Of a DNA stretch of 7,142 nucleotides, positions 1 through 7,142 are shown one piece after another; within the stretch, counting starts at the first letter, position 1; the number at the start of each line of letters is the position of its first letter. Origin of the DNA: a virus (Duplodnaviria > Heunggongvirae > Uroviricota > Caudoviricetes). Position numbers and translations under genes: made by a program. The stretch covers positions 1 through 7,142 of the IMG/VR virus record IMGVR_UViG_2740892219_000009. One strand, written 5' to 3'. The notes under the pieces were generated by a model. It searched no databases, was not told the DNA's origin, and was given only the letters and a program-made list of their open reading frames with translations.

Positions 1-11
1 CGGTGGGTTAC
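1..11. repeat. 3' half of a hairpin (cggtgggttac) identical to the 3' arm of the lipoprotein terminator at 3983..4004; cut by the window edge
   Basis: The 11-mer cggtgggttac at 1..11 is identical to 3994..4004, where it forms the loop end and 3' arm of the hairpin gtaacccac-ttcg-gtgggttac. The 5' arm of the copy at the window edge would lie outside the window. Confidence 0.4.
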
Positions 12-47
12 CCCCAAACGAATCGGAAAATCGATACTGGAAAAACT

Positions 48-179
48 CTAACTCGGTGGCCAGTTTTTGTTGACCACTTCATAGCCGTGGTTACGTGTCG
101 GTTGTCGCCCATTATCCGTTCCTTCTGACCACGCCAACATATCGAGGAAGGCTTTACGCTGAGGATTAAGATTTTGCAT
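48..179 (-). pseudogene. N-terminal fragment of a lambda R-type endolysin (lytic transglycosylase), 43 codons then an in-frame TAG
   Basis: Translating the minus strand from ATG at 179..177 gives MQNLNPQRKAFLDMLAWSEGTDNGRQPTRNHGYEVVNKNWPPS*. The first ~35 residues match the conserved N-terminus of lambda R endolysin (NQRKAFLDMLAWSEGTDNGRQ.TRNHGY, including the catalytic-Glu motif WSEGT). Similarity is lost right after NHGYEV and a stop follows at 50..48. The start overlaps the holin 3' end by 14 nt and has a GGGGTG Shine-Dalgarno. Too short for the ORF track. Confidence 0.55.
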
Positions 180-471
180 TTTTCACCCCTGTCAGTCGTT
201 CCCAGAAGTACGTCAGTGCAACCGAACCCATCGCACCACTAATCCCCGCTGTCGCGAGAATCATGTAAATACTGAATCCACTTTCGATGCTGATCAGGCC
301 ACCAATAACACCGGTGAATCCTGATACCACTATTTGAGCCAGAGCATTTATCCAACTCCACGTTGCTTTACTCTGCTTCACATCTATCAGGTAGCGGACC
401 AGACCGCCCCAACCTGCGATGATCAGCAAAACGAGCCAGAACGCTCCGGCAAGGCTCTCTTTTTCGTGCAT
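166..471 (-). CDS. Holin, about 101 aa with three predicted transmembrane segments
   Basis: Track ORF 166..585 (-); the likely real start is the ATG at 471 (MHEKESLAGAFWLVLLIIAGW...). Three hydrophobic stretches (AGAFWLVLLIIAGWGGLV, WINALAQIVVSGFTGVIGGLI, FSIYMILATAGISGAMGSVAL) are followed by a charged C-tail. It sits immediately upstream of and overlaps the R-type endolysin start, downstream of the Q candidate and late promoter. The start has no obvious Shine-Dalgarno, so the exact start is uncertain. Confidence 0.7.
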   Translation of the reverse strand: MHEKESLAGAFWLVLLIIAGWGGLVRYLIDVKQSKATWSWINALAQIVVSGFTGVIGGLISIESGFSIYMILATAGISGAMGSVALTYFWERLTGVKNAKS

Positions 472-782
472 ATGAATAGCCAATGTTTCGCCGCCGACAA
501 AAGGCCGGGACGTTAAATGACAGAAAGTTTGTTCACGAGGTAATTTAACGACAAAGCACGAGGTTAAAACTCCCTCAAAGACCAAAGATAAAAAAGGTCT
601 ACGCTGTTGGTTTCAGAGTTAGTTGCAATATTTCCTGATTATCCTAAGCTGAGTTCTGACTCACCAATTCAGGATGTATTTCAAAGAAGGATGATTAGTT
701 AGATTAATTAAAAAATCTATAAGGGCTCATGAAGAAAGCTAGAAAAAAATCAAATTAACGAACCAAAGCATTGGAAAAACAA

Positions 783-1094
783 ATGAAAGCAATTCAAATA
801 ACTTTAATATTATTACTGTGCAGCACAATCACTGCATGCTTTGCCTCCGATTCTGAAGGAAAATATGTTCAAGGTGACTGCATCACGGCTAACGACTCAA
901 GTTACACTTGGTTTGGTGAGGTGGCAAAAGTAGAAGCCTACACATATATCACTGGTTTTGCCGGTCCAAAGTACATCCTTTACTTCCCTTATTACAAAGC
1001 TGACTCTGTAGTTTTTGAACCTGAAATCGAAAATCACACGATTAAGGTTCCCTCCCGTTACTGTCAAAATATTAATAACGCTTTATCAAGATAA
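783..1094 (+). CDS. Small secreted protein or lipoprotein of unknown function (about 103 aa) in the Q-holin gap; AT-rich moron candidate
   Basis: Track ORF 771..1094 (+) begins at a TTG; the ATG at 783 gives MKAIQITLILLLCSTITACFAS..., a typical signal peptide with a possible lipobox ITA-C or an AXA-type cleavage site. The mature part has two Cys. The gene is visibly AT-rich compared with its neighbours and lies on the strand opposite to late transcription. No family recognised. Confidence 0.55.
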   Translation: MKAIQITLILLLCSTITACFASDSEGKYVQGDCITANDSSYTWFGEVAKVEAYTYITGFAGPKYILYFPYYKADSVVFEPEIENHTIKVPSRYCQNINNALSR

Positions 1095-1155
1095 GAAAGA
1101 ACCAAAACCACGATTATTAGATTTGTGCTCAAATTCACAATTATTGTGTACTATC

Positions 1156-1192
1156 TTCAAAGAATAAGCCCAAGGCTTTAAACCTCGGGCTT
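1156..1192 (-). terminator. Intrinsic terminator candidate on the minus strand (tR'-like), about 50 nt downstream of the candidate late promoter
   Basis: Minus-strand RNA would form a 10-bp stem AAGCCCGAGG / CCUUGGGCUU (one G-U pair) with a 7-nt loop UUUAAAG, followed by AUUCUUUGAA. On the plus strand the same dyad has an A-C mismatch and a weaker U-tail, so it may also act weakly for the plus-strand moron gene. Confidence 0.45.
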
Positions 1193-1247
1193 GAATTTGG
1201 ATTACTACCAGTGCGTACAACATTGGCAAAATATCAGATTTACATGA

Positions 1248-1276
1248 AATATATGCTTTTTAATCCAGTTTTGCAA
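1248..1276 (-). promoter_or_regulatory. Candidate sigma70 late promoter (PR'-like): -35 TTGCAA, 17-bp spacer, -10 TATATT
   Basis: Read on the minus strand: TTGCAA (1276..1271), a 17-nt spacer, then TATATT (1253..1248). Both hexamers are 5/6 to consensus with optimal spacing. The -10 lies 7 nt past the Q-candidate stop codon and the predicted start site (about 1241) is upstream of the hairpin at 1192..1156. This matches the lambdoid arrangement Q - PR'/qut - tR' - lysis genes. Confidence 0.4.
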
Positions 1277-1949
1277 TATCTTGCTGTGAAAATGTCGCCT
1301 TTTGTTTTGAACGTGTTCTCGTTACCAGCAATAAAGCTTCGCTATCAAGCTGTAGAAAAATGCGCTTCATTGCAACCCAGCGTTCAGTGAATGTCTCAGA
1401 CCAGTTTTTTGATGTCACTCCCACCAGTGATGCCAGCTCCTGGTATTCATAGGTCTCACGCCCTGCCAGTTCGCTCTTCACATCCTGTGCTGCCAGCCAG
1501 ATTAACGTCTTCAGGCGATCCAGTGTTTTACCTGCAATTTTTCTGGTACCCAACAGAGCCTTAAACTCGCTCCATGCCCACTGCGTTATGGCAACCTGAT
1601 GCTCCCAGCGAATATTTTCACTGTAACTCCACAGCAACCATGCTTTCTGATGTTCATCGAGAGACAAAATCGCACGCCGCCATGAAGAGGTTGAAAACTC
1701 GACCGAACTGACCAAGGCGACAGATGAACCTTTTGCGTACGACTGTTTACCGGAAATCGGCGGATTATCCAGCGTAATCATCTTGCCAGTTACCTCATCC
1801 AGAATGCGCGGCTTCTTTCGTTTATATGTACCAGTATCAAATTGTGCATGCTCCAGCCAGGCTTCAAGCTGGCCTTTCGTTGCTCCGCTCAAATCAGCGG
1901 TAGCCACCATGAGTTGCTCGCGGACATACTGTAAATATTGGATATTCAT
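1260..1949 (-). CDS. Putative late-gene antiterminator in the Q position (229 aa; not the lambda zinc-finger Q type)
   Basis: Track ORF with ATG at 1949 preceded by AAGGAG at 7-nt spacing; its start overlaps the ylcG-like stop (ATGA). It sits between rusA/ylcG and the late promoter and holin, exactly where lambdoid phages carry Q. The protein contains no cysteine, so it is not a lambda-type Q; assignment is positional. Confidence 0.5.
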   Translation of the reverse strand: MNIQYLQYVREQLMVATADLSGATKGQLEAWLEHAQFDTGTYKRKKPRILDEVTGKMITLDNPPISGKQSYAKGSSVALVSSVEFSTSSWRRAILSLDEHQKAWLLWSYSENIRWEHQVAITQWAWSEFKALLGTRKIAGKTLDRLKTLIWLAAQDVKSELAGRETYEYQELASLVGVTSKNWSETFTERWVAMKRIFLQLDSEALLLVTRTRSKQKATFSQQDIAKLD

Positions 1950-2086
1950 GCGGCAGCTCCTTTCAGCGTTTTGGCGTAATTCTTCAGTATCCGGTAATCG
2001 GTCAAAACAGAACCGGGAAAACTATATAAGCGCAGACACACCCAGCGGCGGCGAAGACGTTCTGCCATATAAGACTCAAACATCAT
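1946..2086 (-). CDS. ylcG: YlcG-like small protein (46 aa) between rusA and the Q candidate
   Basis: Hand-translated from the minus strand: [46 protein letters not shown]. The start overlaps the rusA stop (ATGATG over TGA) and the stop overlaps the Q ATG. Size and position match the small ylcG ORF of DLP12-type prophages as I recall it. Too short for the ORF track. Confidence 0.5.
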
Positions 2087-2445
2087 TCATCTCCCAGTTC
2101 AGTGATGGTCAGCTCCAGCTTCCCACCTTTGGTAACGGGCATCTTCACAACGCGGTAATCAACGACCTGAGCATCATCCAGCCAGAAACCTGCTTTGGTG
2201 AGAGCGTCAAAAGCGGCTTTTTGCAGATTATCCAGGTCACGGCGACGGCGATCCGGCATGTGGCACTCAATGCGGATTTTCACAGGAATAGCCAGGCCGA
2301 TATCCAGCATTGCGTTTTTAATGATTTGGGCGACGTTATCGCGGTATGCCTGCCCCTCTGCGCTGATATGCGTGCGTCCGCGATTATGGCGGTAATAGCG
2401 ATTATTGCTCGGCGGCCAGGGTAGTGTGATGCAGTAAGTATTCAC
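2083..2445 (-). CDS. rusA: RusA Holliday-junction resolvase (120 aa, GTG start)
   Basis: Track ORF 2083..2508 (-) is over-extended upstream; the GTG at 2445 overlaps the ybcO stop (GTGA). The sequence [24 protein letters not shown]...[38 protein letters not shown] is near-identical, from recall, to E. coli RusA, including the acidic catalytic cluster. Confidence 0.9.
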
Positions 2446-2732
2446 GCCTTGATTACCCCTTCTTTCAGCCAGATAACCAGTGTTCTCGCCATACCTTCCA
2501 GCGCACATTCTTTTGCATATCCAGCGTCAACAAAATGCGTGCGACGGTCGATTTCGTCGTGGCAGGCAGAACATGCAATGGTGGCAATCAGGTCTGGCGG
2601 TTTGGTACCGGTGCCGCACAATCCAGTCAGCCGGATATGTGCCAGTACAGACGTTTCAGGGTTGCCATTACATACGCCAGGGATTCTTACCTGGCATTCC
2701 CGACTACGCGCTGCTTTTCTCAAATCAGCCAT
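2442..2732 (-). CDS. ybcO: YbcO-family (DUF1364) putative zinc-binding nuclease (96 aa)
   Basis: The start at the internal ATG ([24 protein letters not shown]...) is preceded by AAGGAGG at 5-nt spacing inside the ninE 3' end. A four-Cys pattern (C-x7-C ... C-x2-C) is present. Track ORF 2442..2771 is an upstream extension. The position between ninE and rusA matches the DLP12 order. Confidence 0.8.
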
Positions 2733-2895
2733 GATTCCTCCTTGCTGCCAGTCGCAACCATTTTTTATCAACCAGGCTGGCGGTATATCCGAGCAGTGTT
2801 GGTATTTCGGAAGGCTTCAGCTCCGGTTTACGCTTACGACGATTTGGTACTCTGTAGATGTGTCCGCTCATGACACGAATAAGTGGTGTAGCCAT
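2725..2895 (-). CDS. ninE: NinE-like protein (56 aa)
   Basis: Hand-translated from the minus strand: [56 protein letters not shown]. The ATG at 2895 overlaps the ninB stop (TAATG) and is preceded by AGGAGG; the stop overlaps the ybcO start (ATGGCTGA). Too short for the ORF track. Confidence 0.7.
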   Translation of the reverse strand: MATPLIRVMSGHIYRVPNRRKRKPELKPSEIPTLLGYTASLVDKKWLRLAARRNHG

Positions 2896-3350
2896 TACGC
2901 CTCCTGCTTGTCGCGCAGCAGCTGGAACTCGCAGCTCTGCGGAATAGTCAGGTGACAGCCAATATTCATCGCCCAGGCTTCAACCTTACACAGGAAGACA
3001 TACATCTCTCCGGTATCAAGATCGGAGGTATGGCGTAACGACTGGATCGTAGTAATTTCACCGGTTACGACATCAACCAGGTCTTTGGTTTCATAACCGA
3101 GGTATGTGTGTTTGAGTGCATCTTTTACCCATACTGCAGTAGCGAACGTTTTACCCCTGCTGATGAGGTACTCACTGATTTCGCTGTACCACATGTGGCT
3201 GAGTGCATTCTGGGAAAGACTGCGTCTCTCGCGCCACGGCTTAAGCACCATGCGAAAGCATTTACCGTCCTCCAGATAAGGCTGGATCTGCTGACCGATA
3301 GCGGTGAAGTTACCGCGATGCAGTTTGATGCCATCTTGTGGGAGGTTCAC
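2895..3350 (-). CDS. ybcN: NinB/Orf-family recombination protein (YbcN-like, 151 aa, GTG start)
   Basis: Track ORF; GTG start at 3350 with a GGAGGT Shine-Dalgarno 5 nt upstream. The motif [23 protein letters not shown] resembles the lambda NinB core (RNRSLDQNRKLW...). It is the first gene of the overlapping nin chain. Confidence 0.8.
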
Positions 3351-3620: not shown

Positions 3621-3977
3621 ATGAAAAAAATGTTGGCTGTCGCATTGGCAACCCTTTTGCTGACCGGATGTACCGTTCGTGTAGCAGACCTTACTGTAGC
3701 CAGTACAAAAAACTATAATTTAAATGGTGGTAAATTTTACAAAGGAAAACGCGTAACTGCAGAAGATAGCTATCCTGTTATCATCTTCCCAACAGGTATT
3801 CCCAATGTAAAAACTGCTGCCGATCGTGCAATCGAGCAAGACCGTTGCGCTGTGGGTCTGACTGACGTTGTTGTAACACAACTTAACCAATCATTCCTGG
3901 TTGGTAAAATTGGTTTACGTGTTGAAGGGAATCTCATTATTGACCGCAGCCTTCCTGGATGCGAAAACGCAGGATGA
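3621..3977 (+). CDS. Lipoprotein (118 aa), probably a divergent Bor/Iss-family member
   Basis: The N-terminus MKKMLAVALATLLLTGC has a canonical lipobox (LTGC) and is nearly the same as the lambda Bor signal peptide. The mature region shows patchy Bor-like similarity by eye (KTAADRAI..., VVTQLNQSFLVGKIGL versus Bor VKTETQQTFVNGLLGF). It is divergent from ninB and followed by a strong terminator. Confidence 0.65.
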   Translation: MKKMLAVALATLLLTGCTVRVADLTVASTKNYNLNGGKFYKGKRVTAEDSYPVIIFPTGIPNVKTAADRAIEQDRCAVGLTDVVVTQLNQSFLVGKIGLRVEGNLIIDRSLPGCENAG

Positions 3978-5904: not shown

Positions 5905-6198
5905 TCAGAACCCAGCGGGGGAACTCTTTGGCCACAGGAGTTCGTGCGAACATGACGATCCGTTGGTCTCCCCGAAGGCTAAATACTCGAGACGCCTGCA
6001 TTCCACGAGGGTGGTCACTTTGCCCCCTCCTATCATCATGTCTGTAAATTCATCTGAGTGACGAGAGTAAATGCGCTTAGCTGCGTTATCGTCCGCATAT
6101 TCCATTGCTAAACCAACTTCAGTGGCAGTAAGCCAAATTCTGTTGTTGTGGCAAATCGGGGTAAACGTCGTTTTGTGGAATGCTAATTGAGTAGTCAT
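5905..6198 (-). CDS. BRO-N / antirepressor-N-like domain protein (97 aa), possibly a truncated N-terminal fragment
   Basis: ATG at 6198 has a GAGGTG Shine-Dalgarno at 5-nt spacing. The motif F.K..FTPICHNNRIWLTATEVGLAMEYADD...SDEF resembles the BRO-N / P22 Ant N-terminal signature (F.F...IR...DGEPWF.A.DVA..LGY...D.DEK). The ORF ends where composition switches to AT-rich, and there is no C-terminal domain. Confidence 0.45.
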   Translation of the reverse strand: MTTQLAFHKTTFTPICHNNRIWLTATEVGLAMEYADDNAAKRIYSRHSDEFTDMMIGGGKVTTLVECRRLEYLAFGETNGSSCSHELLWPKSSPAGF

Positions 6199-6561: not shown

Positions 6562-6948
6562 ATGTGGTTTATAGTATTAATAGCTATCCTGATTATTGCC
6601 GCTTTCGTTTTTAAAAGCTCCAAATCCAAAAATCCACCTTCGCAACCAGTTCGTACTACTAAAAAAATAAAGGCACCCACACATAAAAAAACGCAAACTA
6701 ACTATAGTTATAGTACCGATATCATTGAGTTAGATATAACTTATCAGGATGCGAAGGGCGAAATCACTAATCGCCATATATCTATCATAAAATACGACCC
6801 TTCAAAGAAAAAAATATATGCACGGTGCCATTTAAGAAAAAGCATGCGAAGTTTCTATATTGATAGAATATTAACCGCAATAGATATTGAAACTGGCGAA
6901 ATTCTTTCAGATCTCGACGGGTATATATCAGAAAGAATAAACTATTAA
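6562..6948 (+). CDS. Small membrane-anchored protein (128 aa) with a WYL-like C-terminal domain
   Basis: Track ORF 6553..6948 starts at a GTG; the ATG at 6562 is preceded by AGGTG at 6-nt spacing. The N-terminus WFIVLIAILIIAAFVF is a single transmembrane helix, followed by a Lys/Ser/Thr-rich linker and a beta-rich domain containing KIYARCHLRKSMRSFYIDRI, which resembles the WYL-domain core (WYL.A.C......R.FR.DRI). The gene is AT-rich. Confidence 0.6.
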   Translation: MWFIVLIAILIIAAFVFKSSKSKNPPSQPVRTTKKIKAPTHKKTQTNYSYSTDIIELDITYQDAKGEITNRHISIIKYDPSKKKIYARCHLRKSMRSFYIDRILTAIDIETGEILSDLDGYISERINY

Positions 6949-7142
6949 CATTCAATATATTTACCCCAAGCATTATGTGCCGGGGCATGTAATTATATGA
7001 CCATTGATAATTCCATTTTGTAAATATTTAGGTTGTCATCAATGATAGTGCGTTTACTTTTCCATACACAGCCAACACTCGTTTCATCGCGACACTCTGG
7101 CGACACTCCTTAAAAATCAGGTTCGTGCTCACCTTTCCTTCC

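Follow-up and report, generated by a model that had tools for sequence, protein, structure and literature searches.

The R-type endolysin gene of a DLP12-like prophage in Escherichia albertii E2675 has, in all likelihood, been interrupted by the simple insertion of an IS911-like element, and the contig that carries the prophage breaks within that element. Read from its sequence, R is inactivated in this strain, and the missing remainder of R, together with the missing Rz/Rz1 genes, is a limit of the assembly and not evidence of loss. A first-pass annotation of the same DNA had described the decay of a lysis cassette, in which an intact holin was left without a functional endolysin in a cryptic element. 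That this copy of R is non-functional stands; the decay does not, and its place is taken by what looks to be a recent insertion at the end of a draft contig.

Among the about 15 billion proteins of the collection searched, the exact 43-residue product of the interrupted gene occurs on one contig alone, BBVT01000064.1 (GCA_001514865.1), and the window, that is the whole stretch of DNA analyzed here, is the entire 7142 bp of this contig. Accessions BBVT01000001-119 are those of Escherichia albertii E2675, a raven isolate from Japan (PMC5797873), whose draft is among 26 drafts built from MiSeq reads with Platanus (PMC4700944). The features of the window on which the argument depends are collected in Table 1.

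Table 1. Features of the 7142-bp window, from left to right; coordinates are positions of the window, and L021 is the related uninterrupted locus in chromosome CP117637.1
Feature	Position	Strand	Basis or remark
IS911-like right terminal end (IS3 family)	1..81	+	80/81 bases equal to annotated IS911 end
OrfB transposase, last 23 codons and stop	2..73 (tga 71..73)	+	translation GGLPPNESENRYWKNSNSVASFC, then stop
Chimeric 43-codon ORF, MQNLNPQRKAFLDMLAWSEGTDNGRQPTRNHGYEVVNKNWPPS	48..179	-	R residues and tail read from IS911
lambda-R-type endolysin, 5' fragment (codons 1-32 and 2 nt of codon 33)	82..179	-	gapless alignment to L021 begins at 82
Holin, 101 aa	166..471	-	Pfam Phage_holin_3_3, E 7.5e-22
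103-aa ORF with signal-peptide-like N-terminus (MKAIQITLILLLCSTITACFA...), moron position	783..1094	+	between Q and holin
Terminator-like hairpin	1192..1166	-	consensus match downstream of Q
Candidate late promoter	1276..1248	-	consensus match just downstream of Q
Antiterminator Q, 229 aa, regulator upstream of the lysis cassette	1260..1949	-	Pfam Phage_antiter_Q, E 2.6e-96
ren-like gene, 3' part (last 37 codons)	7028..7142	-	right contig end

The left edge of the window is the right terminus of an insertion sequence. When positions 1..81 were compared with positions 2001..2081 of a locus of E. coli ST2747, 80 of the 81 bases were identical, with one difference, and the match to the IS911 copy annotated there, a 1249 bp element at positions 833..2081, stops on the final base of the element (...GTTGACCACTTCA). 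IS3-family elements have ends of the form 5'-TG...CA-3' within a terminal inverted repeat, and the terminus at position 81 of the window is the canonical ...CACTTCA, in which the terminal CA of the family is present. Inside the element, the translation GGLPPNESENRYWKNSNSVASFC with its stop is identical to the C-terminus of the transposase of the ST2747 copy; this stop codon lies 8 bases before the IS911 end, and the transposase reads rightwards, on the plus strand and opposite to the lysis genes. The complete IS911 transposase, OrfAB, is made by a programmed -1 frameshift that joins orfA and orfB. The IS terminus was matched with E 6e-35 in 28 Gb of E. coli genomes, and a 90-bp query gave 5627 hits in 2841 of these genomes, with up to 24 per genome and many of them on plasmids; the annotation beneath the best hits was 'IS3-like element IS911 family transposase'. 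The terminal inverted repeat, the CA end and the sequence identity place the segment in the IS911 group of the IS3 family. Copies annotated as ISEc52 match the terminus at 95.6%, and the name IS911 is used here, on the 81 bp of the element in the window, for IS911 or a very close isoform. What the segment has in common with the IS911 of Escherichia and Shigella is the terminal 81 bp, the OrfB C-terminus and the join to the target on the last base of the element; it differs in that the window shows the last 81 bp alone, one base off the reference copy. The hairpin fragment formerly reported at the window edge gives way to this element: positions 1..200 hold one inverted repeat, the 7-nt pair AAAAACT/AGTTTTT. 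As a separate observation, bases 2082..2089 of the ST2747 locus, beyond its best-scoring IS911 copy, read TAGCCATG and positions 82..89 of the window read TAGCCGTG, and the match runs past the IS end; this most likely reflects how far one copy in thousands can extend by chance, and no target preference.

To the right of this terminus the window is prophage DNA. An uninterrupted relative, found via the recombinase protein of the window, lies in the complete 4.87-Mb chromosome CP117637.1 (L021), where an unbroken run of holin (101 aa), R (158 aa) and Rz (145 aa) represents the empty site. The alignment of the window with this locus begins precisely at position 82 and extends to 7142 without a gap, with 98.84% identity. 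Alignment to an intact R, which the first-pass annotation had proposed as the way to find the breakpoint and any inserted element, thus locates both, the insert being IS911. The breakpoint in R is at 81/82, on the IS911 end, after nucleotide 98 of the gene (codon 33); a breakpoint in this gene had been correctly predicted, although it had been placed at 50..70. Intact E. coli endolysins annotated as 'glycoside hydrolase family 24' match the window rightwards only from position 76-79.

The open reading frame that crosses the breakpoint, previously described as an R-type endolysin frame that overlaps the holin and ends at an in-frame TAG after 43 codons, has exactly this extent, and it is chimeric. 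Its residues 1-33 are identical to the N-terminus of the intact R alleles in loci L014-L021, so that the alignment of the fragment to R-type endolysins holds; codon 33 (Tyr, TAT) is completed by the first base of the IS, and a tail of ten codons, EVVNKNWPPS, is read from the IS911 inverted repeat before the TAG, which appears as cta at 48..50 on the plus strand. The start of this frame overlaps the holin stop by 14 nt, as R does in intact cassettes and in the E. coli O157 annotation. Similarity to lambda R had been said to end exactly at the TAG, but it is lost after residue 33, 10 codons earlier. The same distance bears on the idea that the endolysin gene is continuous and carries only a point nonsense mutation, or a sequencing error at 48..50 beyond which it continues in frame. 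The in-frame TAG that such an explanation needs is there, but R similarity stops 31 nt before it, and from that point the sequence is that of IS911 in 80 of 81 bases; we give this explanation practically no weight.

What is left of R was compared with the lambda R lysozyme, a lytic transglycosylase (PDB 1AM7) of the S-R-Rz/Rz1 cassette, with which the L021 allele aligns end to end (E 1.4e-99). The window keeps the first 33 residues, homologous to those of lambda R and including the residue that aligns with Glu19, and it keeps the position of the gene directly after the holin; it differs in that the gene is cut at codon 33, with about 125 of the 158 residues absent from the reading frame. In place of a complete catalytic domain of about 158 aa, 33 residues of R remain in frame, and no Pfam family matched the 43-aa chimeric product. 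As far as its letters tell, the R remnant is a gene fragment and not a functional lambda R-type endolysin, and since a 43-aa peptide lacks the rest of the lysozyme fold, no murein-degrading activity would be expected from the gene.

The holin, in contrast to its neighbor R in the earlier description, had been called intact, and this was borne out: its match covers positions 2-78 of the 78 of the Pfam profile, a full-length family match in an intact reading frame upstream of the endolysin. The identical holin protein is indexed in 30833 blocks of a public collection, and all 10 loci listed have an intact endolysin of 158 aa after it. The related loci L022-L025 have a holin of another type, Phage_holin_3_1, where the window has Phage_holin_3_3.

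Contigs built from short reads break where unique sequence meets a repeat. The left end of the contig sits 81 bp into multi-copy IS911, and the right end lies in the ren-like gene, parts of which also occur in other lambdoid prophages; its 37 codons in the window encode the same residues as the C-terminal end of the 103-aa gene that follows P in L021. Both contig ends are consequently in sequence common to other mobile elements, as would be expected if the assembly broke at repeats, and the remainder of R and Rz/Rz1 are absent from the window because the contig stops 81 bp inside a multi-copy IS. The absence of Rz/Rz1 had been noted before, and none is found within the 7142 bp; its reading as a loss is not upheld, as the contig terminates in the IS, inside a repeat, before they would be reached. 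In the relatives, the spanin gene directly 3' of R is either an Rz of 145-155 aa or one of the DUF2570/LysC-type genes.

A contig of this kind could also be suspected of an assembly artefact, in which the last 81 bp were misjoined to the R fragment and R is intact in the genome. The window is indeed a contig of a short-read draft and has a repeat at its end, and contigs often break in R genes: the 43-aa product falls in a cluster, from a clustering at 90% identity in which lysozyme fragments, N-terminal ones included, group among themselves, that holds 41 short lysozyme fragments. However, the last nucleotide of IS911 is precisely where the join lies, as expected from transposition and not from a random chimera. 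Furthermore, the 14 of these 41 members that were read, short 'lysozyme, partial' products checked for the same junction, are all plain contig-end truncations that keep the native ...GYDV..., and none of the 14 continues into IS sequence. We regard an artefact as very improbable.

The comparison with uninterrupted relatives also bears on the age of the event. Over positions 82..1200, which hold the R fragment, the holin and the moron, the window is 100% identical to loci L016 and L017, both with intact cassettes, and shows one mismatch to L021. This identity to intact cassettes, together with a chimeric product unique to the contig, points to a recent single insertion; the insertion of IS911 in R looks recent and strain-specific, and no sign of gradual decay is apparent. 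Over the whole alignment with L021 there are 82 mismatches, of which 74 fall in 1795..2900, from the N-terminal part of Q through ybcO, and one in 82..1794; judged by this distribution, 1795..2900 contains a sharp mosaic recombination joint of the type usual in lambdoid phages. In L021 itself, positions 18496..21421 run from a Nu1-like small terminase gene through a DUF2971 gene to FI, with no large terminase, portal or capsid gene called between Nu1 and FI, and the L021 prophage looks defective in its morphogenesis region.

A second disrupted R was found in locus L019 (GCA_949766965.1, positions 7700..9400), where the same R gene contains, near codon 98, another IS3-family element that gave no nucleotide match to IS911. 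R DNA borders this element on both sides, the flanks overlap by 4 nt and an N-terminal R fragment is left. The two cases share the R family, the neighboring moron and holin and the presence of an IS3-family element within R; they differ in the element and in the site, and in L019 both junctions are visible. The L019 insertion is independent of that in the window, so IS hits in the R-type endolysin recur, and with R DNA on both sides it indicates that simple insertions in R do occur. In the phage collection the only near-identical hit was Escherichia phage PhiR47_2 (PV340567.1, L030 2120..2595), at 97.9% with 49% of the query covered; its record splits 'lysozyme R' into two CDSs, which suggests a frameshift or a stop in that record.

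The event that we propose for E2675 would have begun with the transposition of an IS911-like element of about 1.25 kb, of the IS3 family, into R after nucleotide 98. Translation of R would then run from codon 33 into the right inverted repeat of the IS and meet the TAG ten codons on, yielding the 43-aa peptide, and the assembler, unable to cross a multi-copy IS, would have ended the contig 81 bp inside the element. The 3' part of R, Rz/Rz1 and the late genes would follow beyond the IS, possibly on another contig; most likely, the insertion is a simple one and the R remainder and Rz/Rz1 lie about 1.25 kb further on. Insertions of IS911 and other IS3-family elements are bordered on either side by a short direct repeat, 3-4 bp of duplicated target. 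For the present insertion the prediction is TAG (plus strand) as the duplicated sequence and ...AATAACGTCG-TAG-TGAAGTGGCACAC... as the far junction, with TGAAGTGGCACACTGAATTTGG as the IS911 left end; in the form ...AATAACGTCG[TAG]TGAAGTGGCAC..., this junction would lead on into the rest of R and Rz/Rz1. A simple insertion with a 3-bp duplication would put the R remainder in frame with GTG codons of the IS left end, and a product started at such a GTG would be without Glu19.

The predicted far side was searched for in two collections. In the species-representative genomes, a far junction made of R sequence, a gap of 0-8 nt and the IS911 left end had no match, and neither did the observed junction GTTGACCACTTCATAGCCGTGGTTACG; since the window's own junction is unmatched there, this collection appears not to include strain E2675. 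Eight predicted R-remainder products, obtained from two in-frame GTG starts in the IS left end and four R variants of the closest relatives, with both gene call and R variant guessed, were absent from the protein collection by exact look-up. That the far junction was not recovered would fit a deletion or an inversion associated with IS911, in which the IS adjoins unrelated DNA at its other end; R beyond the breakpoint, Rz/Rz1 and perhaps late genes would be lost or relocated, leaving a holin-only remnant, which comes nearest to the cryptic, lysis-defective element of the first-pass annotation. IS3-family elements mediate adjacent deletions, and the related L021 prophage, without the terminase large subunit and the portal-to-capsid genes, indicates that the lineage can be defective. 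However, nothing in the window demands such a rearrangement, the failed searches are blind to the other contigs of E2675, the cassette beside the IS shows 100% identity to intact ones and the comparable insertion in L019 is simple; we consider the rearrangement unlikely. Further removed still, and in our opinion quite improbable, is a reading in which an IS-mediated deletion of the R remainder, the spanins and the late genes left a Q-controlled holin-only module, 100% identical to functional copies, that the host might use as a switch for non-lytic death or release.

The remainder of the window is that of a defective lambdoid prophage of the DLP12 type, whose gene set we take to be ybcK, ybcN, ninE, ybcO, rusA, ylcG, Q, holin, lysozyme and Rz. 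Upstream of the lysis genes, and on the same strand, are Q, rusA, ybcO, a YbcN/NinB-like gene and a 508-aa serine recombinase, and the gene order from serine recombinase to Q to lysis genes is the same as in the DLP12-type prophages of E. coli. The one adjoining icd in E. coli O157:H7 is about 92% identical over 64% of the window. Differences from the DLP12-type prophage are the moron, which in the window is the 103-aa ORF on the opposite strand, the neighbors of the recombinase, the host, which is E. albertii, and the disruption of R by an IS. The exact 103-aa moron protein is indexed in 119 blocks and lies between Q and the holin in all 7 loci listed; Pfam gave no family for it. Three small genes by the recombinase stand where the E. 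coli O157 prophage has emrE-type cargo, and the genes flanking the recombinase are a 118-aa lipoprotein-like ORF (3621..3977, plus strand), a 97-aa ORF (5905..6198, minus strand) and a 128-aa ORF with a sub-threshold WYL-like hit (6562..6948, plus strand). The promoter and terminator sites of Table 1 belong to classes whose number in the window is not above shuffle expectation, and their assignment as PR' and tR', the arrangement expected to drive the holin and R, is a positional one.

Q-dependent late transcription would start downstream of Q, pass the holin and enter the R fragment. In lambda, R mutants with a functional holin and no endolysin show killing without lysis. By analogy with this lambda biology, induction of the E2675 prophage would lead to cell death through the holin but not to lysis, unless an endolysin comes from a co-resident prophage, and the lysis cassette is probably lysis-defective.

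IS disruption of prophage genes is commonplace in Escherichia and Shigella, and an IS911-type insertion in a prophage R gene is an already known kind of event. As the case illustrates, a gene that looks 'truncated' where a draft contig ends may owe this to an IS junction together with a break in the assembly, and should not be taken for gene loss or cassette decay; the relevance of the case beyond annotation hygiene is slight. For E2675 it provides a prediction, namely that the prophage in the window would be unable to lyse its cell with its own endolysin, as a routine example of inactivation by an insertion sequence.
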